Shown: piece after piece, positions 16,001 to 63,380 of the stretch
How the letters are laid out: each line of letters opens with the position of its first letter
Position numbering within the stretch: the first letter of the stretch is position 1
Source of the DNA: Octopus vulgaris
Lineage: Eukaryota
Assembly: GCA_951406725.2 (NCBI GenBank)
Contig: OX597819.1
Coordinates: 22,816,001-22,880,000 of the forward strand
Direction of reading: 5' to 3'
Length of the DNA stretch: 64,000 nucleotides
Made by a program: the position numbers and the translations under genes
Notes under the pieces: model-generated
Databases searched by the model: none
What the model was told of the DNA's origin: nothing
The model's input: the letters and a program-made list of their open reading frames with translations, nothing else

Positions 16001-18931
16001 GTTTTAGATGAGTTCGTCATCATCGCCGGACTCGGAAAATATAATAGATTTACATGGAAAAAACTTGCAGAAAATTGAGAAAATCACCACGGTAATACAT
16101 TTAATAAAATATTCTTATTATAAAGTTCTTTATTCACTGTATAACGTTTAAATAATTATATAGGCCCTTGTCTATTACAGAGTACTTTTAGGTCTGTTTC
16201 CGTACTTGTGAACACGCAGAGTGTATAGTAACCGAGAAACCACTATAACTAGGCGCCTAGTTATAACAGCGAGCAGCATTATTTGGGTGCAGTGTTATTC
16301 ATAGATAAGGGAGCTGGAAGATATACGTGTACTAGTTCCAGGTACTAGATATTTTGGATTTAAGGCAAGTGGTTCGGGTCCTTATTTGTATAAATTAATC
16401 TTTAATATCATTTTACGAAAACATTGATATTCATTTCTTTACTGCCCATAAGGGGTTATACACAAAGGGGACAAACAAGGACGGACAAACAGATTAAGTC
16501 GATTATATCGACCCCAGTGCGTAACTGGCACTTATTTAATCGATCACGAAAGGATGAAAGGCAAAGTCGACCTCGGCGGAATTTGAACTCAGAACGTAAA
16601 GACAGAGGGAATACTGCTAAGCATTTTGTCCGGCGTGCTAACGTTTCTGCCAGCTCGCTGCCTTCCTAAAATAACTATTTCTTTACTACCCACAAGGGGC
16701 TAAACATAAAGTGGACAAACAAGGACAGACAAAGGGATTAAGTCGATTACATCGACCCCAGCGCGCAACTGGTACTTAATTTATCGACTCAGAAAGGATG
16801 AAAGGCAAAGTCGACCTCGGCGGAATTTGAACGCACAACGCAACGGCAGACGAAAAACCGCGAAGCATTTCGCACGGCGTGCTTAACGTTTCTGCCAGCT
16901 CGCCGCCTTCAAATATTGATATTCCTTAATGTAAGGGAAATAGCGTTCCAATAAATTCGCTCATCAGGAAACCTGAAAGAAGTAACGACTGACAAATAGA
17001 CAAACTGAACGAGAGACAGACTGACAGACTGACACAGACACTGTTGTAGCATCGTGACCTGGTCTCAAGTCTAAATATATTATACTGTACTACTTTCTGT
17101 TGTTCCATTCTAAGAGATGTAGATTCTTTCCTTTCCTCTGTCAATTTCAGAGGCCATGTAATATGCCATGGGCATTCCCTTTCTTCCTCTGACTAAGCCA
17201 GTTACAAACAGATTAACCGAGTAATAAAGCCCAGAGTAATTAACCAGATATATTGTTCTCTTGTGAGTGGATTTGGTAGACGGAAACTGAAAGAAGCCCG
17301 TCGTATATATGTATATATATGTGTGTGTTTGTCCCCCTAGCATTGTTTGACAACCGATGCTGGTGTGTTTATGTCCCCGTTACTTAGCGGTTCGGCAAAA
17401 GAGACCGATAGAATAAGTACTGGGCTTACAAAAGAATAAGTCCCGGGGTCGAGTTGCTCGATTAAAGGCGGTGCTCCAGCATGGCCGCAGTCAAAATGAC
17501 TGAAACAAGGAAAAAGAAAAAAGAAAAAGAAAAAAAAAGAAAAAGAACCCAATAAAGAAAGAAAAACAAGACATAATTAAGCTACAGTGTTATTTGTTAT
17601 ATGACAGGTAACTTTGGAAGTATAATTTTGCCACCATGGGTAACAACAGGAAATATGGAATACATACAGTAATTATAATTTAACTTTTGTCAAATATCTT
17701 GGTGCTTATACAGAAAAACAAGGATGAAATGAATACATATCGTCGAAAATAAAATATTTCCTAATTGTATAACTCCTCCCCCCCCCCCCAAGCCTCCTTC
17801 TGTCAACAAGCCAAGTATGTGCACTCATCTTGTATCTTGTACCTCTTATGTTAACTCTTTCTGTATCTTCCTTTTATTCTCTCTGTATACAATGAGAGCG
17901 TAACTGGAGAAATCAACCTACTACATGAAACTTCGTTTATCGCTGATTCCTTCACCACTGATCCGGAAGAACACAGTACGCTCAACTGTGAACCATGTTA
18001 TGATTATCACGGATTGTTCTTTTATAACAAGTGTTGTGTGGACTGTCGAAGATTCTGCCCATACCATATAAACGCACCTTAGTGACATCCTCCTCCACCC
18101 ACCACACACACATATACACAATCCTCAGCTAACAAGAAATCACCGACTATCGCTTGTGCTTACATGAACGTGTAGCGAGTCTGCGTATTTCTTTATATAG
18201 ACTTTCGCACTCGTACCTATTAACATCGGACCAGTGAATAGAGAAGCTATGAAGATGCCTCATCCACACAAGTGACTCAGACGAGTATATTTTGATCAAA
18301 AAGATACGTGACGGTGGGTGCTTTGCAGCTTTAGGAATTGAGTTTGCTGTCGATAAATCAACCATTAAACGTTAGCACGTATTTCGTCTGTCTTCGCGTT
18401 CTGAGTTCAAATTCCGTCCTGGTCGAATTTGCTTTTCATCGTTTCGGGGTTGATAAATTAAGTACCTATTTCTTTATTACCCACAAGGGGCTAAACGCAG
18501 AGGGGACAAACAAGGACAGACATAGGTATTAAGTCGATTACATCGATTCCAGTGCGTAACTGGTACTTAATTTATCGACCCCGAAAGGATGAAAGGCAAA
18601 GTCGACCTCGGCGGAATTTGAACTCAGAACGTAACGCAGACGAAATACCGCTAAGCATTTCACCCGGCATGCTAACGCCTTAATTAAGTACCAGTTGCAT
18701 GCTGGGGTTGATCTAATCAGCTGGCCCCCTCTCCCTAAATTTCGGGCCTTGTACTTAGAGTAGAAAAGAAAAGAATAAACCAACCATTTATTCCATTTAA
18801 AAATGTATGTGGTGATTCACGTATCACTGTTTTTATTATAATTTTACCTACGCATCGTGATAAACGAGGACAGATGTATTATTATATACAGATACTGATA
18901 ATTGATATTGTTAAATTAATATTTTCTACAG

Positions 18932-19595: not shown

Positions 19596-20830
19596 TTTAA
19601 AATAGTTTGATTCAGCACCATGCACCTTAAAATTTTTTAGGCATTTTTATAGAAACCTAGCTCGTAGGATACAGCAGCCAAATTGAGAGGTTCAAGAAGT
19701 CTAAGGTGGCTACCGGGAAATAGTATGCTATTGGTTAAGATAGGTCATGCGGTGTTATCAGAAATGGAATTGAAATTTCAGCGACATCAAATCCATTTAA
19801 GAAGAGATCCCAATATAAATTTCATGAACCTGGTGGCGTCTCGTTGCCTAGCTGGTCTTCGAAGGGACTTGAGCAACATCGACGCGGCGGGGCAGTTTGT
19901 ATGTGGCGAGCTGATAGAATCGTTAGTACGTCGGGCGAAGTGCTTAGTAGTATTTCGTCTGCGGTTACGTTCTGAGTTCAAATTCCGCCGAGGTCGACTT
20001 TGCCTTTCATCCTTTCGGGGTCGATTAAATAAGTACCAGTTACGATTACATCGACTGGGGTCGATGTAATCGACTTAATACCTATGTCTGTCCTTGTTTG
20101 TCCCCTCTACGTTTAGCCCCTTGTGGGTAATAAAGAAATAGGTACTTAATTTATCAACCCCGAAACGATGAAAAGCAAATTCGACCAGGACGGAATTTGA
20201 ACTCAGAACATGAAGATAGACGAAATACGTGCTAACGTTTAATGGTTGATTTATTGACAGCAAACTCAATTCCTAAATCTGCGAAGCACCCACCGTCACG
20301 TATCTTTTTGATCAAAATATACTCGTCTGAGTCACTTGTGTGGATGAGGCACCTTCATAGCTTCTCTATTCACCTAATCCGTGTGTCCCCCTCTGTGTTT
20401 AGCTCCTTGTGGGTAGTAAATAAATAGTAAACATATATAAGGAGATTTTAGGACTATCATTTTTACTTGTTGCAAAATCTGCGACTGTGTGTTCGTTTGA
20501 AATTTATATATTTCGAGCAGTAGCGAGTTACAGCCATCTCTAGCAGACGATATGTCCAATACTGAGGAATGGCAGAAATAGCACGAAACCAGAACTGGCC
20601 TACTGGTCATGTCGCTAGAAGGTGGTAGGGGTTCGCTCCCCTGCAAGCAATTCATCGGATGCAGCTGTGCATTGTTAACCAGGTATTGGAGATGTTCTCT
20701 TGGAGTTAAAAATTCGCAGTAGAGTCTGTTCGAACGAACAACCATGTTAAAGTAGCTACGAATATTACTTGTCAGTACAACTGCTGCGTTGGTCGCTTAA
20801 GGAGACTTTAAAACTAGCATTTTTGCTTAG

Positions 20831-20868
<38 letters not shown>

Positions 20869-20909
20869 GTATGTATGTATGTATATATATGTATGTATGT
20901 GTATATATA

Positions 20910-21560
20910 TAAGCCAAAACAACTCTTTTATGGAGAGTTAGCTAAAGGAGAACGACCTCCACGTAAACCAAAAGAGAGATATAAGGACTTGCTGAAGGCT
21001 TCCTTAAGAGATGCTTGCATCTCTCCTGACACATGGGAAGGCATAGCTATTGATCGTAGCAGGTGGAGAAGGATTGTGCATGAGGGGACAGCCACGTTTG
21101 AGAAATCTCGAGTTGCACATGAGAAAGAAAGGAGGGCTGTCAGGAAGGGCATCGCTGTTACACTTCCAGAAGGGAAGGGTCTTCCTTTGATTCTCACATG
21201 CAATGTCTGTGCAAGACCCTGCCTCAGTAAAGCTGGACTCATGAGTCATCTTCGTAGTCATAAAACGAGACAGATAAGTGACAACCTGGCCACTGGTGGT
21301 AGTGTAACACACCATACTAATCATATCTGTCGGGCATGTGGAAGAGAGTGTAATTCGGCAGGAGGACTTAAACGACATGCAAAGGTACATGAAGCCCAGC
21401 TACAACTACAGCCGGCTATTACCAGTAAAGGTCTTAGTTGCCAATTTTGTACAAGACATTGTAGATCTTTAGCTGGGCTAAAAAGTCACATTCGATCACA
21501 GTGCCAGTAATAGTTAAGCTTCGTGCAATGGCCATACTCGATAACGAGGGGGCAGCCATA
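20910..21560 (+). mobile_element. RTE-clade LINE 3' end with three tandem C2H2-type zinc fingers
   Basis: PKQLFYGEL..G.RP..KPKERYKD..K..L....I....WE..A.DRSRWR is the RTE C-terminal signature, followed by CNVC..H..H, CRAC..H..H and CQFC..H..Q. 5'-truncated in a (TA)n-rich tract. Confidence 0.8.
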
Positions 21561-35910: not shown

Positions 35911-36831
35911 CATACAGATATATGTGCGTATATGCGTATATGTATAGTGTGTGCGTGTGCGTGTGCGCGCACGTGTATGTGTGTGAGTGTCTACAGTTAT
36001 ATGTTTATTTCTTAATTTCCCACAGGGGGCTAACCATAGAGGCAACAAACAAGTACAGACAAAGGGGTTAAGTCGATTACATCTACCCCCAGCGCGTAAC
36101 TGGTACTCATTTAATGGACCCCGAAAGGATGGCAAATGAACAACTATATACACGGCTACTTCTATAAGATTAGAACTGCACGTAGATTTTATTATCCAAT
36201 CAGCTACCAGTAGTTAAGTCAGCCACTTCAAAATTAGTAGAGTTCATAAATTTGATATACAGAGCATAGGTAGGAGAAAAATTAAGATGAACACAAATAT
36301 AAATGTTTAGTTTCTACGTACGTTTCACCGTTGTATATTTGGAACACAACATTGGTTGCTCCAAGTACATATCGATGCTTAACCGTAGTGGATCATCAAA
36401 GGAAGACTTCATAGCGATCTGCTACAGAGATCTAACACCTGAAATCAGACGCATAGTGCGGTAATTTATAAGTATTTAGAGAAGGATCGGGAAAGGATGC
36501 ATATGTATCAGTAAAAGCAGCAGAATTTAAGGACTTACATAGACATATGTGCATAATATATATGCGAGCGGTGGCCAAAAAGGCTTGGCTAGAAAACTAG
36601 ATTTCCGAGTACTTTTACAGAGTCCAGAAAACTGAAGAACCGCTGCAATGTGTGCATTTGAGAGGGAAATATATAGAATAAAAACACAATAAACAGATCC
36701 TTCTGTATTTTCTATTATGCAAAACCATGAACTATTCTGCACACCCTCATATACACAGGTACACATCTATGCAATTATATATGTTGTATATACGCTCTAT
36801 ATGTTGTATATAGACAGGAAGACGATGAAAT

Positions 36832-36878
<47 letters not shown>

Positions 36879-36983
36879 TTGAATGGACTCTCCCGTCGTT
36901 AGATGACGTTTGAGGGTTCGACAATGTCTTAGCGAACAACGACACAGATGTATGTTTATAATGATCAAATGTGATCAAATGTT

Positions 36984-37063
<80 letters not shown>

Positions 37064-37068
37064 TATAT

Positions 37069-37119
<51 letters not shown>

Positions 37120-37714
37120 CGTGTGTGTATGTCAGTGTGTGTGACTACATGTATTATGTATATATATATATATTTGCACATATACACACATATAAACACA
37201 TACTCTTTCTCATAGTCATAAGTAAACATTTGTATGCAATGAGTTATTTGAAAAGCATCTTGTAAATTTTATTTCTTTTAATGTATTTATAATATATTAT
37301 TTTTCTATAGAACGGTATTTCGCCGAATTTACCATTTTCAGAGTTCCGATAAATTATGGACCTTGAGAGGCTCACTTGAAATTCTGCCTTAATCTCCCAA
37401 TTTTGAATTCCCCACTTTCTCGTATAATTTGTACATTACGGTCAAGTTTACGACCTGACTTTAAACTGATTTGTGGGCGGATTTGGCAGACAGGAACTCT
37501 TAGGAAATTTGTCAAAAAATATCAACCACGCACCCGCGCGCGCACACACGTACACACGCAACATACTCATTCACATGCATATATATATATAAATATATAA
37601 ATATATAAATATATATGTAGGCATATATTTATTAATATGTGTGTATATATGTAGATAATATGTGTATATATATATGCATATATATATATATGTATATATA
37701 TATATATGTATGCA

Positions 37715-37759
<45 letters not shown>

Positions 37760-38215
37760 ATATATGTATATATATACGTGTGTATATATATATATGTTTA
37801 TATATATCTATATATATATGTATATATAATTGTATATATATATATATACATACATATATATATATCTATATATATATATATATATGTATATATATCTACA
37901 AATATATATATATGTGTATGTATGTATGTATGTATCTATCTGTCTATCTATCTATGTATGTAACTAATGAAGGATAACATTTTTTTTTTCCTTTTCGGGA
38001 AAAAAAATTTATCAATGGCCAGCATATCAAAAAATACCTTTAAAGGTTAAATTTATAAATAATTTACAAGATAAGGGCAAAAGAAAAATTCTAATGCCAA
38101 ATATGTGCCGAAAAGTTTTCTATTTTGGATATATTTGGGGTACTTAGTTCTGCTCGGGACTTAGTGCTTGCTTTTTCCATGGGTGTGAGTAAGTATTTCA
38201 CTTATATCTCTCGTA

Positions 38216-38278
38216 TTTGCCGCTGAAGAGGGGAAAATTTCTTACGAATTAACCCCGAAATTGGACCAATACGGTAAG
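38216..38278 (+). ncRNA. Type I hammerhead ribozyme in a fold-back element (38060-38409)
   Basis: tttgccg-CTGAAGA-GGGG-(19 nt)-CCCC-GAAA-TTGG-a-CCAA-TA|cggtaag. All core residues and three stems are present. The element ends are inverted repeats (38060-38113 vs approx. 38353-38409). Confidence 0.8.
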
Positions 38279-39603
38279 AACAAATTTTTTAGAGATTTCT
38301 ATCGGTTTGTTTCGAGACGCATTAATTATAATGGTTTATTGACAATTATTGTCTTTTTTTCGGCATATTTGGCATTAGAACTTTTCTTTTGCCCTTATCT
38401 TGTAAATTATCTATGTATATATATATATATATATATATATGAATAACGTTGGCTAGAACAAAATGCGTGCACTATTGTGTGAGTGTGTGTTTGTGAATGC
38501 GTACAGGTGCTTATGCGTGTATGTGTGCGCATGTTTGTGTGTGTGTGTATGTGCGCGTGTGTGCGACTTATTCTCTTCCCTGTTGATTACCGTTGTTAGC
38601 ATGATCTCTTTACGTGACTGAGCGACTCGTCGAAAGAAAAAAGGTACCACACCTAAAAACCTTGTGCTGTTTTTATTTGACGTGATTGGCGAAACGCTTC
38701 AAGTGTTGGTGTAGTCCAATGATTGACACCGGTACATGCGTACATGCATGGCATATTTATAGACATATATACCTGCATAAATATACATATACACATATTT
38801 ATATATACGCATATATATATGTGTGCGTGTGTGTGTGTGTGTTCAGGAAAGTAAAACGAAACCAGGCATGAATGTATAATCTCATGACAATTCGAAATTT
38901 GCAGTTAAGAAAGAAATTATAATAAAAAGATACGAAAACCACGGAGCGCACATAAAGATTTAACCATTGTGTATGATAATCTGATCTCAATGCAAGCTTG
39001 AAAGGCTCTGAGTGATACGAGAAGACATTAAGTGGAAGTAAATTTGATTTGCATCAACAATATGGTTAAGAGAAAACACCTCGGTGTCCGCTGTGCACAC
39101 CTAAATAAAAAAATAAATAGATACGGTACAGTTCTATATATGCAATATAGTGAGTTGAAAAACTTCGAGTAACTTAGTTTAATCATGTAATTAGTACACA
39201 AAACCTTACTCTAGCAAAGAAGATTGCTAGAGAGAACCAGGATAAAAACTCAATTACATTCTATCCGGCAAATCAGAGATCTATGAATAACTGCGGTTAC
39301 AAATCTAGATTGGATTGTGCACCTGAAAAATATAATTGAGATCGCTAAGATGAAGTTTCTGAATACATATTTCAAATCTTCAGATAAAATATCATTGTTT
39401 TGAAGTTTACCAAGAAAAGTCGAATATTTAATCACGCTTTTGTTACTCGATACGAGAAGTGACATAATATAACCGGAAAAATTCTATGCATAGCGTATCA
39501 TGGCAAAAACCTGATGATATGGTTGTGTTTAATGTTTTAAGTAAAGTGTAATACATATATACATACAGACAGGCATCCATACACAATATATGTATACATA
39601 CAC

Positions 39604-39662
<59 letters not shown>

Positions 39663-39779
39663 AATCAAGGAACGGCCATAATAGGCCATTCACCCACTAG
39701 AAATAACAGCCAAAGCTTCAACCGCAAAATAACATTAATTCCGTAAACCAGGAGAAAATTAAAAAACATTTACCCTGTA

Positions 39780-39886
39780 ATTTCTTATACGATGCACCGT
39801 TTCATCTACTGTTTAATGGTAAACTAACCTGATTAAATTAAATCAAGCCAATCTTCCATAGGCCCTTAGATTCCTCAGTAAGAAAT
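39780..39886 (-). ncRNA. Type I hammerhead ribozyme, array unit 1
   Basis: atttctta-CTGAGGA-ATCTA-(approx. 58 nt)-TAGAT-GAAA-CGGTGCATCG-TA|taagaaat. Predicted cleavage after GUA, between 39788 and 39787. Confidence 0.85.
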
Positions 39887-40267
39887 AGCCAGAACGGAAC
39901 AGATATTTTCACGAGGCATTTCTGTCCCTGCCTCGGCAATATCTGACCTGAAATTTTCAAATCATCGCACTCGCGCCAAATTTATCGGCAGCAAATAAAT
40001 ATAAGCCGCCGATTCCATTACGGAATCAACCAGAAAATTCATAATTAATCAATATAGGGTGGCAAAAAAATTTTGTAGAATTTTTTTGCCACCAGCGGCC
40101 TAGTGGGAAAAAATTAAATAGTCATAGACCATTTATAAGTTCAACATCACAATCAAGGAACGGCCATAATAGGCCATTCACCCACTAGAAATAACAGCCA
40201 AAGCTTCAACCGCAAAATAACATTAATTCCGTAAACCAGGAGAAAATTAAAAAACATTTACCCTGTA

Positions 40268-40374
40268 ATTTCTTATACGATGCACCGTTTCATCTACTGT
40301 TTAATGGTAAACTAACCTGATTAAATTAAATCAAGCCAATCTTCCATAGGCCCTTAGATTCCTCAGTAAGAAAT
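40268..40374 (-). ncRNA. Type I hammerhead ribozyme, array unit 2
   Basis: Same sequence as unit 1, 488 bp away; predicted cleavage at 40276/40275. Confidence 0.85.
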
Positions 40375-40756
40375 AGCCAGAACGGAACAGATATTTTCAC
40401 GAGGCATTTCTGTCCCTGCCTCGGCAATATCTGACCTAAAATTTTCAAATCATCGCACTCGCGCCAAATTTATCGGCAGCAAATAAATATAAGCCGCCGA
40501 TTCCATTACGGAATCAACCAGAAAATTCATAATTAAACAATATTGGGTGGCAAAAAAAATTTTGTAGAATGTTTTTGCCACCAGCGGCCTAGTGGGAAAA
40601 AATTAAATAGTCATAGACCATTTATAAGTTCAACATCACAATCAAGGAACGGCCATAATAGGCCATTCACCCACTAGAAATAACAGCCAAAGCTTCAACC
40701 GCAAAATAACATTAATTCCGTAAACCAGGAGAAAATTAAAAAACATTAACCCTGTA

Positions 40757-40863
40757 ATTTCTTATACGATGCACCGTTTCATCTACTGTTTAATGGTAAA
40801 CTAACCTGATTAAATTAAATCAAGCCAATCTTCCATAGGCCCTTAGATTCCTCAGTAAGAAAT
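40757..40863 (-). ncRNA. Type I hammerhead ribozyme, array unit 3
   Basis: Same sequence as unit 1, 489 bp from unit 2; predicted cleavage at 40765/40764. Confidence 0.85.
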
Positions 40864-41087
40864 AGCCAGAACGGAACAGATATTTTCACGAGGCATTTCT
40901 GTCCCAGCCAAAGCTTCAACCGCAAAATAACATTAATTCCGTAAACCAGGAGAAAATTAAAAAAACATTTACCCTGTAATTTCTTATACGATGCACCGTT
41001 TCATCTACTGTTTAATGGTAAACTAACCTGATTAAATATATTGATTAAATATATATATATATATATATATTGATTAAATATATATAT

Positions 41088-41120
<33 letters not shown>

Positions 41121-41124
41121 TGAT

Positions 41125-41283
<159 letters not shown>

Positions 41284-41642
41284 TGATTGATTGATAGATT
41301 CAGTAGGGTTTTTAATACCACTTGCTAAAATCAGTGGCAACGCTCCAAAACCTCCAGAAACTCACCAGAAAGATACACACGAGCAATGCAAAGAACTTAT
41401 GAGAAATAGGCTTACCTTTGCGTTGAATACATCAGTAAGTAGTGTATTTAAATACTAATTGATTTCATCCTCTGTACGACCAACATACTCTGAGATCTTC
41501 AGTTGAAAATAACATTTTAACATCTATTTGTAAAATATTCATTAAATTAGCTCGTAGTGAATCTCAATTTAAATTATATCGTGCCTGTAAAAGTGTGAAT
41601 TTGCTAGCCACAGTAACAGTAATAATACGTCTTTATTGAAAG

Positions 41643-41756
<114 letters not shown>

Positions 41757-41956
41757 TTATGTATGCATGTATGTATGTATGTATGTATGTATGTATGTAT
41801 GTATGTATGTATGTATCTTCAACAGGATAGGTTAAAAATAAAAATGGTTTGTAGCGTTACATTAAATAGTAATGTTCTAAAATTCAAACAGAATCACAAG
41901 AAATGAATAAATGGAAAATTGATACACAAAGCGACCTGCTTACAGGTTCATTCCCA

Positions 41957-42002
<46 letters not shown>

Positions 42003-42351
42003 GTCTATCTATCTATCTGTCTGTCTGTCTGCTTCTATCTGTCTATCTATCTATGTTTCTGTCTGTCTGTCTGCTTCTATCTGTCTCTATCTATTTAGTT
42101 TTTGTAAGTTTTCTTAAACGACATTTAAGAAACAGAGATTTGCCATTTTCTTTCCATTTTGTAATAAGCATATATTTTTCTGAAGAAGCGTAGCCTTTAA
42201 AGACCATGTTAATATATATGTGTATGTTAGTGTACATACATATATACACGCATGCGTAGTCAATTCGAATAAACGGATGAAAGAAGAAAAGCAAGGAACG
42301 TGAGGGTGTGCGCCAGAAGTATATTTGCGTGACGCTCGGTGATAGGAGAGA

Positions 42352-42386
42352 GTTTAACGTTTCGAGCATTCCTCTTCGTCAGAGAG
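42352..42386 (-). ncRNA. Minimal HHR, intact core, weakened stem I (PLE-terminus remnant)
   Basis: ctct-CTGACGA-a-GAG-gaatg-CTC-GAAAC-GTT|aaac. Confidence 0.6.
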
Positions 42387-42529
42387 GAGAAAGTGAAAAG
42401 TTCAAAGAAGAAAACGAAATCGACAACGGATCACGTGTAGTTACATACATTAATACATGCATACATAAATACATACATACATACATACATACACACATAC
42501 ATACGTACATACATACTTATATACAAACA

Positions 42530-42563
<34 letters not shown>

Positions 42564-42572
42564 CATACATAT

Positions 42573-42603
<31 letters not shown>

Positions 42604-42934
42604 CATACATAGATACATACATCCATACATACATACATACATAATGCATACACACATACATACTTATATACAAACATACATACATACATACATACATACA
42701 TACATACATACATACATACATACATACATACATACATACATACATACATACATACATACATACATACATACATACATACATGGTGGAAGTCAGGTGGTGA
42801 TCGAATAAGACCCCTTCATAAATAAAGTTCATGCAAATGGTCCGAGATTTCAAGAAGTTCCTGGACGTGAATTTGTTTTGAATGGATAAAATGCTGCACA
42901 GCATTGAACCCGCTTTTCATCTCAATCAGCTATA

Positions 42935-43325
42935 ACAGCGGTGACCAAACATATATTGAGACGACTAGAAACCAACGGCATTTCAGGTCCTTTGCCCCTA
43001 CTGGTATACACAACATCATAAGCGGAAAGTGTAACCTCTCGAGAGAGCTGTTCTTCACTTCTGCTCCAGAGCGTCGGCTGCGGGGTCATTCCGAAAAGCT
43101 CTATCTGCGACGATTTCATCTCAATCGAAGAAGAGGGGCTTTCTCCGTCCAGGTTGCGGATCCGTGGAATAAGCTGCCGGACGAGATGGTGAAGATGCCG
43201 ACGACCGCTCGGTTCAAAGTCTCCCTTGACCACAAGTGGCCTGAACTCTTTACCTGAACACCACCCTGTACATAACTCCATGTCCCCCTACATGGTCTTG
43301 CTTTTTGCTTTTTGAGCCAAAGAAT

Positions 43326-43357
<32 letters not shown>
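42935..43357 (+). mobile_element. CR1-like LINE 3' end with (TAAC)n tail, inside a (CATA)n tract
   Basis: RLRGHSEKL...RRGAFSVQVADPWNKLPDEMV...FKVSLD resembles the CR1 ORF2 C-terminus; tail aactaactaact. Confidence 0.75.
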
Positions 43358-43494
43358 ACACTAGGTAACACATAGCTGCGACCCTAACAAGCACAACTAC
43401 AACAGGTCATAGTAGGCCTGGTAATGATAATGGATAAGAGGTGGTTCCACACTTCTCGGAACTGCGGAACTCACGTACCAAGGCCCCACTACTA

Positions 43495-43716
<222 letters not shown>

Positions 43717-43837
43717 TTAAAGGTGGCAGTTATTTGCTAAAGAATTCTAAATAAAATTATATCATGTATTGAACCAAAATATGCAACAATATATCCTCTA
43801 ATCAGGCCTGTTTCTATTTTGCATTTCTTTAATTCAG

Positions 43838-43977
43838 GATCAGGATTAAATTGCCCGAGTCTTCACACTCTACGAGTTGATTATAACAATTTGACTGAAA
43901 TTAAAAGTTCTCAGTTGGCTGGCTGTCCAAATTTACGCTCCTTAAACGTTTCCAGCAATAATTTGAAAATTTTGTCG
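43838..43977 (+). CDS. LRR protein exon (SGLNCPSLHTLRVDYNNLTEIKSSQLAGCPNLRSLNVSSNNLKILS), phase 1-0
   Basis: ttcag acceptor, gtgagt donor, two LRRs; phases match. Confidence 0.92.
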
Positions 43978-45014
43978 GTGAGTCAATTAGAATTTAAAAA
44001 AAAATTATAACTGATAGAATCGTTTGAGCGTCAATTATAATATGAATACCTTGCAGTAATTGTTACATCTCTCTTTACACTGAATTCAAATACCACCGAG
44101 GTCAGCTTTGCCTTTCATCCTTTAGAGCTTCATAAAATAAAGTGAAGTTCAAATACCGAGTCGATATTATTGACTGACACCTCTCCCCATATCTTTTGCA
44201 CTTGTGTCTACGTTAAAAACTATTTTAATTGATTAATAGAAATCGCTTGAGCATCGAATAGAATGCCCTAAAATATTTGATCCTGCTTTCTCTCCTCTTT
44301 GAGTTCGAATATCAATGAGATTAGTTTCGCCTTTCATCATTTCCAGATCAACAAGTAAGTTACCATCCAGTAATAGATTCGATTTTTTTGTCTGTTTTTC
44401 TTTTCTTTTTTTTTTTTTTGTTGAAATCTGATATGTAGCTGTCACACTGAGTCAAGCTGAGAATTGTGTTATAGGTAGATAATTTTTGTTGCATCTCAGA
44501 ATATCTTGTATCTGTGAAATTTTTGTTGCATCTCAGGAAGGCCAATACCCCAACAATAAACGCTATGCAATGATTCTGTTTCACTACTGCTTTATTTATT
44601 TATCAATTTCTTAAGTATTTAACCAATAATCTAATCGATTACTTAAGCAATCGCTCCATTAATCAATCAATGACAAATCTAACTGACTGAATTATTAATT
44701 AAACAATCAATTGGTTAATTGGCAAAATAGTTAGCTAAATCACACATAACTAATGAAAATGTGAAATAGACCCAGTGAGTGGGTTTCTCATAATGACCCC
44801 CAAAATACTACAAAAGGTGTTTCAACAGACGAGTTCACATCAAGAATGTTGCTAATACGAAAATGAAAAATGTCCATATATACTTCACAAGTATAAATTT
44901 ATGTTTAAACAAATGAATACTCATCGTGGAGACCGACTGAGAACCAAATCTAGTTCCCAGCATCAAATTTCTGGTGCCAGATTGTCATATGAAATTAAAA
45001 TATAAACAAAATGT

Positions 45015-45580
45015 TCTTTTCTACTCTAGGCACAAGGCCCGAAATGTTTGGGGAGGAGAGCCCAGTCGATTAGATCGACCCCAGTGCGTAACTAGTACTT
45101 AATTTATTGACACCAAAAGGATGAAAGGCAAAGTCGACCTCGGCGGAATTTGAACTTAGAACGTAACGGCAGTCGAAATACCTATTTCTTTACTACCCAC
45201 AAGGGGCTAAACACAGAAAGGACAAACAAGGACAGACAAACGGATTAAGTCGATTATATCGACCCCAGTGCGTAACTGGTACTTATTTAATCGACGCCGA
45301 AAGGATGAAAGGCAAAGTTGACCCCGAAAGGATGAAAGGCAAAGTCGACCTCGGCGGAATTTGAACTCCGAACCTAGCGGCAGTCGAAATACCTATTTCT
45401 TTACCACCTACAAGGGGCTAAACACAGAGAGAACAAACAAGGACAGACAAACGGATTAAGTCGATTATATCGACCCCAGTGCGTAACTGGTACTTATTTA
45501 ATCGACCCCGAAAGGATGAAAGGCAAAGCCGACCTCGGCGGAATTTGAACTGAGAACGTAACCGCAGACGAAATACCGCT
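45015..45580 (-). mobile_element. Tandem trimer of SINE family A
   Basis: Three head-to-tail units joined at ...aaagaaatag|gtatttcg. Confidence 0.8.
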
Positions 45581-52818: not shown

Positions 52819-52821
<3 letters not shown>

Positions 52822-54899
52822 GGAGTGGCCATGGGAACGCGAATGGGCCCCAACTATGCGAACATGTTCGTTGGCTACGTTGAGGCCCAAATATTCTCTA
52901 GTTTCACTGGTCCCACTCCCGAACTATACGGTCGTTACATTGACGACATTATCGGTGCCACCTCACTCACCCGCGAACATCTAGACTCCTTCCTCTCTTT
53001 CGTTCAATCCTTCCATCCTGCCCTCCACTTCACCTGCACTACCTCCAACACCTCTGTCTCCTTCCTCGACATTTCGGTCAGCATTCATCACTCTACTCTT
53101 ACCACCTCCATTCACTACAAACACACAGACTCACACTCATACCTAAACTTCTCTTCCTCCCACCCCAAACACACCAAGCTTTCCATCCCCTATTCCCAAT
53201 TCCTCTGTCTACGTAGACTCTGTAGTGACGACCATGACTTTGAGACTCAGTCTCAACTCATGGCTCGCCACTTCATCCTACGTGGATACCCCCTCACCAC
53301 TATCCACACCGCCCTTGCCAGAGCACGTTCCGTAGACCGTGCATCTGCTCTCTACCCCGAACCCGCCCTAAAGTATCCCGCCTCCCTTTTCACCTCACTT
53401 ACCACCCTACCTTACCAACGCACCTTTCTTCGACCTTTCCGGCATCTCCAGTCCGACCCGTCCACTTCAAACCTCTTCCCTAACCGACCCCTCCCCTCCT
53501 TCAAACGAGCCCATAACCTACGAGACCTCTTGGTCTACAGCTTCTTCCCTGACCCTACCTCCCAGCCTGGCTCGTTCCCCTGCTCCCGCTCACGTTGCCG
53601 TACTTGCCCTTACCTCTCCAAACCACCCTCCTCACCGGTACCCATCACCGACCCTATCGCATCATCGACTCCTTCACCTGCACCTCCAACAATATCATCT
53701 ATTGCATCTCCTGCTCTCTCTGCCATTCCCTGTACATCGGACAAACGGGGCGCCGCTTGGCTGACCGGTTCGCGGAACACCTCCGAGACATCCGACGCGC
53801 CAATGACACCAGTCTCATGCCATTTCTGCTCCACCGATCACTCCTTGCAACCCCTGTCTGTGTTCGGATTGTCCTTGCACAGAAGCCATCCGGATTCCCG
53901 CTTGCGCCGTGAATAGAGATTAATCTTCTCTCTTTGCTCTTTTACGCCTTTTGGCTCAACTCTCCCCCCTTTTCATCTAACCTCCACCCGACTCCTACTT
54001 CTCTTCAGTCCTTCATCTTTTCACCCCTACTCTCTTTCCCTTCTTCCCTTCTTTCCCTCCTTCCCCTTCTTCCCTCTTCTTTCTTCTTTCCTCTTCCCTC
54101 TTCCCCTTCTCTCTTTCTCTCTGCTCCCTCACTCCTCTTCTCTCCCCCTCACCTCCTCCTCCTCTCCCTACCACCCCTCCTTTCCCCCTTCTCCTCCTCT
54201 CCACCTCCTTCTCCTCCTTCCTCCTCCTCTCCTTTCTCCTCTCCTTCCTCCTCCTCCTCTCTCCCCTCACCCCTCATCTCCTCTCTCCCCTCCCCTCCTC
54301 TCTCGTCTCCCCCTCTCACTGTCCCCACATCTTCCATGCTACCCCAACCCCCATCCGAACCCACAACCCACATGGCTTTCCCCACTCTCGCCCCACCTCC
54401 CCACAACATCACACCACACTACACTACACCATACGACTTTACACATCACATCACAACACACCACCCACAGCACACCGCCCACATTACACATCACATCACA
54501 ACACACCACCCACACATACATACATACACACGTCCAGACCACCAGCCCTCTTTCACACGCACATACATACTCTCTTATACACACACGCACCTTCGTGTTG
54601 GGGCCACCTTCGTTTTGGGAGTCATTTGACCCTGTTATCTCCCCTACTATCCCTCTAGCGTCTAACGTCTGACCTCTGACCTCTGACTTCTGCCTGAAGT
54701 CAGAACGCCATGATAGACCGTTAGCTCCTACAGGCATTTTTTCCTTCCTTGTTTCTTTTCTGTGTATCTTTCTGTCCAAGAGCGTAGGCTCGAAACGTAA
54801 AAGACTTGTTCTATTTCTATTCCTGAGCGCCATACTAATACATTTGTTTTTTTTGTACTCCACCTGCCTTCGTCTTTGTTTATTTTCCTAATCCTTCCC

Positions 54900-55806: not shown

Positions 55807-56991
<1,185 letters not shown>

Positions 56992-61098: not shown

Positions 61099-62602
61099 TA
61101 TGTTTTACTTATTTGAATATATATTTATTCTTAAGAAGAAATTTGGTCCATGTTGTGTGTGATGAAATTCACGAGTGAATGACTAATATGGGTAACCATA
61201 TTTCAGAAATATGGTTACCCATTTTACCTCTACATAAGAGAAAATTGGAAGCGATACCTGGATTACTGCTTTATCATCTGGAAGAACATCGACAAACTTT
61301 TGGATTTCAAAACAACACTAAATGACATAAATAGTAACATTCAATTCACAATTGAATATAACAAAGAACAACTTTCATTTTTAGACATCATAATAAAAAA
61401 AGTTAACAATGAAATTATAACTGACTTTTATTATAAACAATATCTTCAAAACAATATCTACTTTTTAATTCATGCCACCCGAAACACATAAAAATAAACA
61501 TCCCTTTCAACTTAGGAAAAGGGATCTGCACAATAGTGTCTGATAGAACAACTCGGGACCTTCGTCTTCAAGACCTCAAAACAACACTTATTGAAAGACA
61601 ATATCCACACTCTCTTATCGACGAGGGAATTAAACGTGCTAAACAATTAGGCACAAAAATACTAAGAAAAAAATAAACATAGCACCACACCTCAAACCAA
61701 AACATTACTATTTATATCAACACAAAACCCCAGAAACAGTGAGGCATTCAACACTATTGTGCAAACTCTTCCTTTACTAACTAGATATCCAAAAATGAAC
61801 TACATCCTGAAAACACACAAACTCATCAAATGCAAAAAAAAACAAGACAAATCGCTAATGAGACTACTAACAAATGCGAAGCTTTACAAAACAACCACGA
61901 AACCAGCAGTTGAAAAATGTGGACGCCCAAACTGTGGAACCTGCCCCAACCTACTTGAAGGCTCGGATTTCCTTTTCAAACAAGGACAGAGGTTCACAAT
62001 TAAAACTAGTTTCATTTGTGCCTCTGAGAACCTAATTTATGTAATAACTTGCTTGGGTTGCGGACACTACTATATTGGACAAACGAGTATGACCTTGAGA
62101 AAGAGAACATAAGGAGCAAATCCGTTTCCCGCAATACAGACAAATTCCTCTCACTGAACATGTAGAAAAATGTGCAGGTAACATCAAACCAAATTTCACA
62201 ATCTTCCATTTCTACCAAGTGCAAAGACGCAATCTCTCAACTAGAACGTTTAAATAAAGAAATTTTTTTCATTGAAAAATACAAAACACGTCTTAATATG
62301 CACTTATAAACAACGTTTATCTTTTTACATATTTCAATTCACGATTACATCACTGTACATAAATCCCCTACTAAATAAGGTTTTTAAAACTTGTCTCTGT
62401 CTGTACACATAAATAATCTCCACCCATTACCGAAAGCTGAACAGTTATCTCCCTTACCCACAACAATAACAACAATAACGACAACCAATTACCTCCCTTT
62501 ATTTATCTACTTGTGAAGTCATTCACTCGTGAATTTCATCACACACAACATGGACCAAATTTCTTCTTAAGAAAAAATATATATTCAAATAAGTAAAGCA
62601 TA

Positions 62603-62637
62603 ATATCATGAATAGCGATAGCGAAACCGGTCGATAT
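62603..62637 (+). ncRNA. Minimal HHR, A3-U8 variant (right pLTR)
   Basis: atatc-ATGAATA-GC-gata-GC-GAAA-CCGG-TC|gatat; GUC cleavage triplet at 62630-62632. Confidence 0.65.
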
Positions 62638-63380
62638 ATTAAAAATTATATTAAAACTATGTAAAGTGTGCGTATTTTCCCTTTTTTAATTCCTTATATA
62701 TATATATATATATTGAGACTGAATGCTACAAAATATAGCAAATTATCTGATAGTTTAATATAGTTTATCGGTATATTAGCGCTAAAACTCAAAAGATGTT
62801 TTCACAGTAGCGTGTTTTATACAGTAATAATTTATATATACTGTGGCGTGTGGAGTGGCTGTGTGGTAAGTAGCTTGCTTACCAACCACATGGTTCCGTG
62901 TTCAGTTCCACTGCGTGGCACCTTGGGCAAAGTGTCTTCTACTATAACCTCGGGCCGACCAAAGTCTTGTGAGTGGATTTGGTAGACGGAAATTGAATGA
63001 AGCCCGTCGTATATATGTATATGTGCGTGTATGTTTGTGTGTCTGTGTTTGTCCCCCTAACATAGCTTCACAACCGATGGTGGTGTGTTTACGTCCCCGT
63101 AACTTATTGGTTCGGTAAAAGAGACCGGTAGAATAAGTACTGGGCTTACAAAGAATAAGTCCCGGGGTCGACTGAAACAAGTAAAAGAGTAAGAGATACA
63201 TATACACATACATATACATACATATACATATATATATACATATATATACATATACATATATATATATATATACATTATATACATACACATACATATGTAA
63301 ATATATATATATATTTATTTATATGGTATATATGTATGCATGTATATATATTTATGTATGTATATGTATATATATGTGTA

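Follow-up and report, generated by a model that had tools for sequence, protein, structure and literature searches.

A young, dispersed hammerhead retrozyme family in an octopus genome, with two-armed insertions suggestive of a Penelope-like enzyme

Results

A two-armed insertion within an AT microsatellite

The window analysed here is a 64-kb stretch of Octopus vulgaris DNA. Within it, an array of short tandem units lies between an (AT)n microsatellite at 39586..39659 and a run of (AT)n followed by (ATAG)n at 41049..41299, which represent the left and right halves of the target. Monomer positions are given as q, where q1 is the first base past the predicted hammerhead cut. The units are 488 or 489 nt long, have a GC content of about 36%, begin head to tail at 39660, 40148 and 40637 (spacings of 488 and 489) and are about 99% identical. 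Both strands of the entire 64 kb were scanned with a descriptor, which returned four hammerheads in total: three belong to the array and lie on the minus strand, and one belongs to an unrelated repeat (38216-38278). The three in the array are complete, which bears out the original prediction of nearly identical 488/489-nt tandem units with minus-strand type I hammerheads. They occupy 39780..39886, 40268..40374 (where the stem II extension of 58 nt was noted) and 40757..40863, with predicted cuts between 39788 and 39787, 40276 and 40275, and 40765 and 40764, respectively. Cleavage after minus-strand positions 40765, 40276 and 39788 would release exactly the monomers that had been proposed, one of 489 nt (40764-40276, full unit 2 at 40276..40764) and one of 488 nt (40275-39788, full unit 1 at 39788..40275), the former resting on the descriptor scan and the latter also on folding.

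The remaining parts of the array are incomplete. Its outer end on the minus strand is a terminal partial unit (q1-130, 39658..39787), and the last positions of this unit, 39658-39660, form fixed end site 1, at which this arm would have been primed. At the opposite end, a 5'-truncated partial unit (q344-488, 40765..40909) is followed by a rearranged 133-nt piece on the same strand (40905..41037) combining q438-488 with q1-81, which we infer to be the product of a template jump. Of the span 39658..41037, originally described as hammerhead units throughout, 2.56 units stand as such, but the 133-nt piece lacks the catalytic core and so provides no fourth ribozyme. A 16-nt inverted second arm then lies on the plus strand (41037..41052, q220-235) and ends at fixed end site 2 in (AT)n, making this insertion two-armed and in agreement with the one-of-each rule described below; part of this arm is present two further times within the microsatellite. 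Site 2 (q235) also occurs within full unit 1 at 40041, following a 15-bp hairpin (40058-40093; together 40041..40093, minus strand), and here the window arm reads through it. An internal copy of site 1 (q130, at 40146) follows a hairpin formed by q97-118 (40146..40179, minus strand), and both end sites fall inside a predicted domain with a long-range stem pairing q41-53 with q247-259 (40017..40235, minus strand). Genome-wide, 408 exact site-1 ends and 813 exact site-2 ends were found, with none for the reversed controls. Target-site duplications are unreadable, since both flanks are microsatellite. As predicted, there is no long open reading frame, the longest ATG frame being 34 aa, and neither a tRNA gene nor an LTR structure was found in the element; the loci that we mapped have no unique body between terminal repeats.

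Elsewhere in the window, where the array had been proposed to lie antisense to a putative host intron, the sole host-like exon among 30 open frames scanned (111 listed) is a C2H2 zinc-finger at 20818-21510 (plus strand). There is also a mariner-type transposase fragment at 56449-56844 (plus strand; PF01359, E 6e-17), and two-copy tandem repeats of 244 and 211 nt at 16433-16910 and 45107-45528 share sequence that we take to be SINE-like.

The hammerhead fold and selection on its core

Each ribozyme comprises an 8-bp stem I, CUGAGGA, a 5-bp stem II closing a 58-nt insert, GAAA, stem III and a GUA site. When the ribozyme region was folded in isolation, the lowest-energy structure contained stems I and II, with stem III shortened (z -4.0). 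Folding the monomer in circular mode gave a z of -7.9 relative to shuffles (-6.7 when linear), in keeping with the highly structured unit that had been described. In the circular fold the structure with the ribozyme formed lies 1.5 kcal/mol above the minimum, and the pairing probability of stem I is only about 0.1. Stem III is calculated at -0.2 kcal/mol when folded as a hairpin but at -17.5 when paired as a self-duplex; such a weak hairpin and strong self-duplex fit the double hammerhead described in PMC4209133, and on these calculated energies the ribozyme would probably cut best as a dimer. Covariance search with Rfam models, which had been proposed as a check, did not recover the ribozyme: neither Hammerhead_1 nor the other hammerhead models matched in 36000-45000 at E up to 1, and all that the Rfam scan returned were sub-threshold miRNA matches driven by microsatellite. 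A likely cause of this miss is the long stem II insert.

In a comparison of 139 loci, the pattern caught 106 locus-level cores, every one of which is CUGANGA, with N7 taking every base (C 36, G 33, U 25, A 12); in an earlier set, CUGANGA was present in 237 of 240 junction instances and 3 deviated. The cleavage base is A or C and differs by subfamily; in 11 loci an A-U pair of stem II has become G-C, and in 7 loci the central GC of stem III has given way to AU with the palindrome kept. In an alignment of 15 haplotypes, 99.1% of cells are paired and two pairs carry double changes; helix covariation is therefore present, as the original prediction required, at a level of two pairs and three cells, which are few events among related sequences. 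Outside the ribozyme, the comparison of inherited variation at paired and unpaired positions was borderline (p 0.048, 15 breaking changes), and so we do not claim covariation across the whole monomer. Judged from these patterns of substitution, the catalytic core is shown to be under selection.

A dispersed family of insertions

Searching the animal's own genome (2.8 Gb) with the unit produced 1329 first-look candidates, 40 of which were scored to give 247 matches; full-length matches among those listed were 97-100% identical, and subfamilies reach down to about 91% identity. The exact ribozyme 26-mer occurs 716 times genome-wide (0 for the reversed-pattern control) and is absent from viral contigs. 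The longest array, L141, has 14 junctions. The element has the sequence features of metazoan non-LTR retrozymes, namely a hammerhead in each full unit (3/3 in the window), short low-GC tandem units and dispersal; the hammerhead is of type I and there is no LTR, as opposed to the type III hammerheads within LTRs that mark plant LTR retrozymes. If one were to regard the array as plain satellite DNA, or as an assembly duplication, containing a hammerhead by chance, the missing Rfam match would be in line with this, but hundreds of dispersed loci with fixed ends, along with an invariant core in which N7 alone is free, leave this reading scarcely credible. The window array is instead confirmed as one insertion of a young, protein-free, dispersed retrozyme family.

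The ends of these insertions were studied in two overlapping sets of loci. Set 1 comprised 79 loci picked by the ribozyme 26-mer or as top matches, and set 2 comprised 79 of 92 loci on contig C1 picked by exact end pattern, which cover 92 of 93 C1 pattern entries. The 3' ends of the ribozyme strand lie at q130 or q235, that is 130 and 235 nt past the predicted cut (a 105-nt tail), and are joined to (AT)n, with variable 5' ends; 5' ends seemingly at q1 in the first mapping were rejected as BLAST truncations. Outer flanks are (AT)n in 143 of 158 cases, and no clear helper chimera was found at the 15 non-AT flanks. In set 2, 62 of the 79 C1 loci are two-armed, the arms being arranged head to head (one locus, L039, is two insertions and was scored by its outer arms). 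Each end site is used once in all 46 classifiable cases among 52 two-armed insertions of set 1 and in all 54 among the 62 of set 2, as well as in 22/22 outward-facing pairs obtained from pattern-list coordinates alone. The outer ends remain the same two whatever the length of the array, either site may bear the longer arm (31 vs 19), and the arms meet over a 1-3 nt overlap in 25 of 50 junctions.

These properties recall Penelope-like elements (PLEs), described as leaving inverted 5'-truncated copies, commonly tailed by 30-40 bp at just one end, with a preference for (TA)n (PMC8557442), and of which a purified protein, acting on AT-rich DNA, cuts both strands and extends them, with two internal RNA start sites (PMC11167929). 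Given the one-of-each rule, the inverted 5'-truncated arms and the (AT)n target, we infer by analogy that a PLE enzyme made these insertions. A different route to two arms would be a single priming event, with the inverted arm arising as a fold-back copy of the first cDNA that is then trimmed at the other site. The tail of PLEs has been ascribed to endonuclease-mediated resolution (PMC8557442), and in 15 of 54 pairs both inner ends fall near one shared monomer position, within 10 nt, to give near-perfect palindromes (e.g. L184, L189, L228), as this would predict. However, the arms of 7 out of 11 short insertions do not contain one another, the longer arm may be at either site, and the purified PLE protein extends both strands from two starts, all of which makes fold-back copying unlikely. 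The 15 near-palindromic pairs may reflect a shared RNA break or palindrome trimming.

A shared haplotype in the two arms of an insertion

Substitution distances are 0.57% within arms, 0.81% between the arms of one locus and 2.5% between loci. Variants fixed in one arm were also present in the partner arm in 176 of 179 cases, those carried by a minority of units were found in the partner arm in 9 of 75, and equivalent units of the two arms share 2 of 96 minority variants. At the level of sequence, both arms are thereby shown to share one haplotype. Variants in 56 loci were predominantly singletons (252, against 38 intermediate), and arrays consequently look as if they were born at once; no A-to-G excess was seen among the singletons. 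Li et al. 2026 have proposed for vertebrate retrozymes that arrays grow locally, and so we considered whether a PLE here delivers short insertions that lengthen afterwards by unequal crossover. Some long arrays (L141, L142, L143) do share intermediate variants within the array, and period-2 and adjacent shared variants in L141, L145 and L151 are what such growth would leave. But the excess of singletons, the same two outer ends at every array length and the finding that, of 31 two-armed C1/C2 insertions, 12 have more than a unit in each arm all point the other way, such that growth by crossover is an improbable source of the arrays as a whole. Later local duplication, conversion or exchange nevertheless also occurs, as the variants of L141-L143 and L145 indicate.

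A pile-up of arm ends at the predicted cut

If the hammerhead cuts the template, copies made from linear RNA should run out near q1. Read-through of the junction seemed near-universal in set 1 (121/137 arms), but this was an ascertainment artefact of picking loci by their ribozyme, and in the end-selected set 2 the junction is crossed by 80 of 137 arms. First-pass stops in the q1-45 bin of set 2 number 32, which exceeds the rate elsewhere by a factor of 4.0 (p 2e-9), compared with 7 later-pass stops in the same bin (ratio 1.6, p 0.16). The difference between passes is modest when expressed as the fraction of arms stopping in q1-30 (29/109 on the first pass vs 6/56 later, p 0.026). Of 54 pairs, 11 stop and 25 cross in both arms, and 3 are discordant (p 5e-7), with an earlier stop in the other 15. 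Stopping loci are interspersed among the subfamilies, their nearest neighbour being a crossing locus for 12 of 13, with enrichment in one subfamily. As the q1-45 bin was set once 20 of the 79 C1 loci had been seen, the same bin was re-run on a second, unrelated family (family B).

Family B, represented in the window at 37960-38415 (hammerhead at 38216-38278, plus strand), has a 469-470-nt unit and is two-armed, again in an AT microsatellite. The two families have no significant similarity (best E 0.095), yet family B shares the layout of family A (the family of the window array), its ends lying about 135 and 226 nt past its own predicted cut. It is also numerous, with 2913 first-look candidates and 264 exact site-2 ends in the genome. 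We studied 40 loci taken by end pattern as the first 40 entries of the list, plus one picked as a possible exception, and widened the first-site bin because BLAST had run into the microsatellite. Different sites are used in 19 of 20 classifiable pairs, one insertion using the same site twice. There were 17 first-pass stops in the bin (ratio 3.2, p 2e-4), with three arms ending at q1 itself. The concordance of arms was not replicated in family B (4 pairs both stopping, 4 discordant, 3 both crossing).

In our reading, some templates would end 5' at the ribozyme cut, so that cleavage in the germ line is likely, and the pile-up would then be a fossil of in vivo cleavage, with the remaining templates likely endless. 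One may ask whether the stops instead mark a promoter near q1 or a structural stall, in which case the hammerhead would be a passenger. The spread of stops over q1-45 rather than at q1, together with a hairpin at about q11-39, is compatible with this. However, a stall should return on each pass, an unrelated family has a pile-up at its own cut too, only the free position of the core varies, and Pol III box patterns gave no match; we consider a promoter or stall to be a little less probable still than fold-back copying or growth by crossover. Returning to cleavage of the template, the endless form could most simply be a circle, which we favour somewhat, and the main rival to the circle is an uncut multimer. 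In its full form, this alternative retains the same element and helper but has read-through occur on uncut or partly cut linear multimers, with circles absent or a side product. The weakness of stem III as a monomer hairpin is in its favour, the seven later-pass stops in q1-45 fit the presence of some linear multimers, and a very young and homogeneous source array would also give identical units. On the other hand, a partly cut multimer should stop polymerisation equally at later junctions (6/56 vs 29/109 observed), minority variants are not inherited at the equivalent units of the partner arm (2/96), and multimers are just where dimer cleavage should be favoured. A linear multimer as the endless template is thus possible, though the less likely account.

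Contigs from four sequencing runs cover the unit, whereas the flanking control is uncovered in the three runs that we guess to be RNA and nearly so in the fourth. As a separate observation, a subfamily with an AU-centred stem III (window 39729-39812) dominates the contigs of runs X1 and X3, which are guessed to be RNA, and is rare in X16; it is also enriched among insertions stopping at the cut, and this may reflect differences between individuals or species.

Candidate helper elements

A genome search for the GIY-YIG domain returned 6136 candidates, of which 150 were scored. These include an intact PLE family with a 765-aa frame encoding reverse transcriptase and GIY-YIG endonuclease, a 781-codon open frame being present in 16 of 20 loci fetched. 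The linker of this 765-aa protein bears a CX4CXXC motif, which by the description in PMC8557442 points to Neptune or Nematis; no relative with a solved structure was found for it. This putatively active Neptune-like family (L091-L107, e.g. L094 807-2204) has many intact 765-aa frames. There are two sites, separated by about 45 nt, at which its copies end in (AT)n, and the two-armed copy L096 has one of each. An upstream 466-aa frame in these elements has no clear Pfam family and overlaps the open stretch of the reverse transcriptase frame. In 12 of 42 PLE 3' regions, a minimal hammerhead-like motif whose core is U3-A8 or A3-U8 was found 62-111 nt upstream of (AT)n, as against any motif in 3 of 42 on the opposite strands. 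The U3-A8 core, a form described in PMC4209133, is carried by L079, L082 and L036, among others, and a putative A3-U8 copy lies in the window at about 62600-62640 (plus strand). The window also holds decayed Penelope-like reverse transcriptase/endonuclease fragments at 52819-53804 and 61159-62297 (plus strand), 27-51% identical to the intact family.

No DNA similarity was found between the unit and 20 PLE loci, and the intact family is consequently only a candidate for the helper. A further 20 GIY-YIG loci yielded one separate short family fragment, and in these 40 GIY-YIG loci of the 6136 candidates there was no pseudo-LTR or 3'-end homology to an autonomous partner. No PLE frame lay beside 20 further site-2 loci. 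In two family A insertions, L040 and L070, the arms abut PLE fragments without a microsatellite spacer, and these could be later insertions or chimeras.

Discussion

The element described here is a new family among the known animal non-LTR retrozymes and is otherwise ordinary. The original reading of the array as a retrozyme, mobilised by a Penelope-type enzyme, is supported by copy number, by selection on the core and by the insertion footprint. Taken as a whole, the explanation that we consider probable is that of a non-LTR retrozyme copied and pasted into AT microsatellites by a Penelope-like enzyme. In this scheme tandem transcripts would very probably cut themselves, most plausibly as double hammerheads. 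Quite probably, a helper GIY-YIG endonuclease would then cut (AT)n on both strands, and reverse transcription of the same RNA would be primed by each resulting 3' end, one at q130 and one at q235. On a cut linear RNA both copies would run off near q1, leaving a short inverted insertion, and on an RNA ligated into a circle by a host ligase both would roll past the junction and make tandem arms at once, after which the two copy ends would be joined head to head, often over an overlap of 1-3 nt. In the most specific version of this proposal, the insertion ends would preserve a record of the joint cycle of retrozyme and Penelope. Both ends of one double-strand cut would be primed by a dimeric enzyme on one and the same RNA, at two fixed sites; copying would run off at the 5' end left by the ribozyme if that RNA is linear and would become twin rolling-circle reverse transcription if it is circular, the hammerhead making the endless template and arrays being born in one step. 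We regard the prospects of this version as evenly balanced.

Whether PLEs mobilise retrozymes, whether circles act as template and what the hammerhead contributes are treated as open questions in PMC7229834, PMC7761336, PMC11167929 and a 2026 preprint. This young family brings together, in a single genome, exact start sites and a target with two classes of template and with candidate helpers that are intact. Compared with the metazoan non-LTR retrozymes of PMC7229834, the octopus element is alike in its short tandem units of low GC that all contain a type I hammerhead, and in lacking LTR and protein. It differs in its 488-nt unit with a 58-nt stem II extension, set against RNAs of 170-400 nt there (Cervera and de la Pena 2020), and in that cleavage and circles were shown in that work and are predicted from sequence here. 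That paper puts forward, both as hypotheses, that PLEs are the likely helper and that tandem cDNA is copied from circles; its text did not yield fixed internal ends, a two-arm rule or a microsatellite target, and 'octopus' is absent from its main text. In the literature searched we found no description of a cephalopod or octopus retrozyme, the supplements of the 2020 paper and of the bioRxiv preprint being places where cephalopod units may be listed.

Li, Clavereau and Pollet (2026; bioRxiv 10.64898/2026.07.22.740005) present vertebrate retrozymes as non-autonomous PLE derivatives on the basis of pLTR homology and co-occurrence, suggest local amplification of arrays and have no cephalopod in their main text. 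Common to both studies are the link to PLEs, arrays of mostly few units, and unit length: at 488 nt, the octopus monomer falls inside their range of 51-972 bp and is not, therefore, the unusually long one that was originally supposed. Unlike in their account, no pLTR homology was found here, the insertion footprint is direct and arrays seem to be born at once. Another parallel is offered by PAc, a Poseidon element from Anolis (Frangieh et al. 2024, PMC11167929), which has two internal reverse transcription starts downstream of a hammerhead, an AT-rich target of which both strands are cut and extended, and a predicted dimer. PAc is autonomous, however, and its start sites are adjacent; in the account given, cleavage is unneeded in vitro and no reads end at the cut, whereas about a quarter of the octopus arms that reach q30 stop just short of it.

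The hammerheads reported in PLEs (Cervera and de la Pena 2014, PMC4209133) are likewise of type I with a weak palindromic stem III that favours dimers, although those are minimal ribozymes and in that of family A the core is the canonical C3-G8, stem I measures 8 bp and stem II has a long arm. Finally, the endonuclease-bearing (EN+) PLEs and non-autonomous elements of Chlamys such as MRC1 (Craig et al. 2021, PMC8557442) show the same tandem and inverted 5'-truncated copies, one-end tail, (TA)n target and multicopy head-to-tail arrangement. The tail is described there as 30-40 nt long compared with 105 nt here, and those non-autonomous elements usually share 3'-end similarity with a partner, of which we found none for the octopus unit. 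Twin rolling-circle reverse transcription, if true, would also explain the tail and the inverted arms of Penelope insertions.
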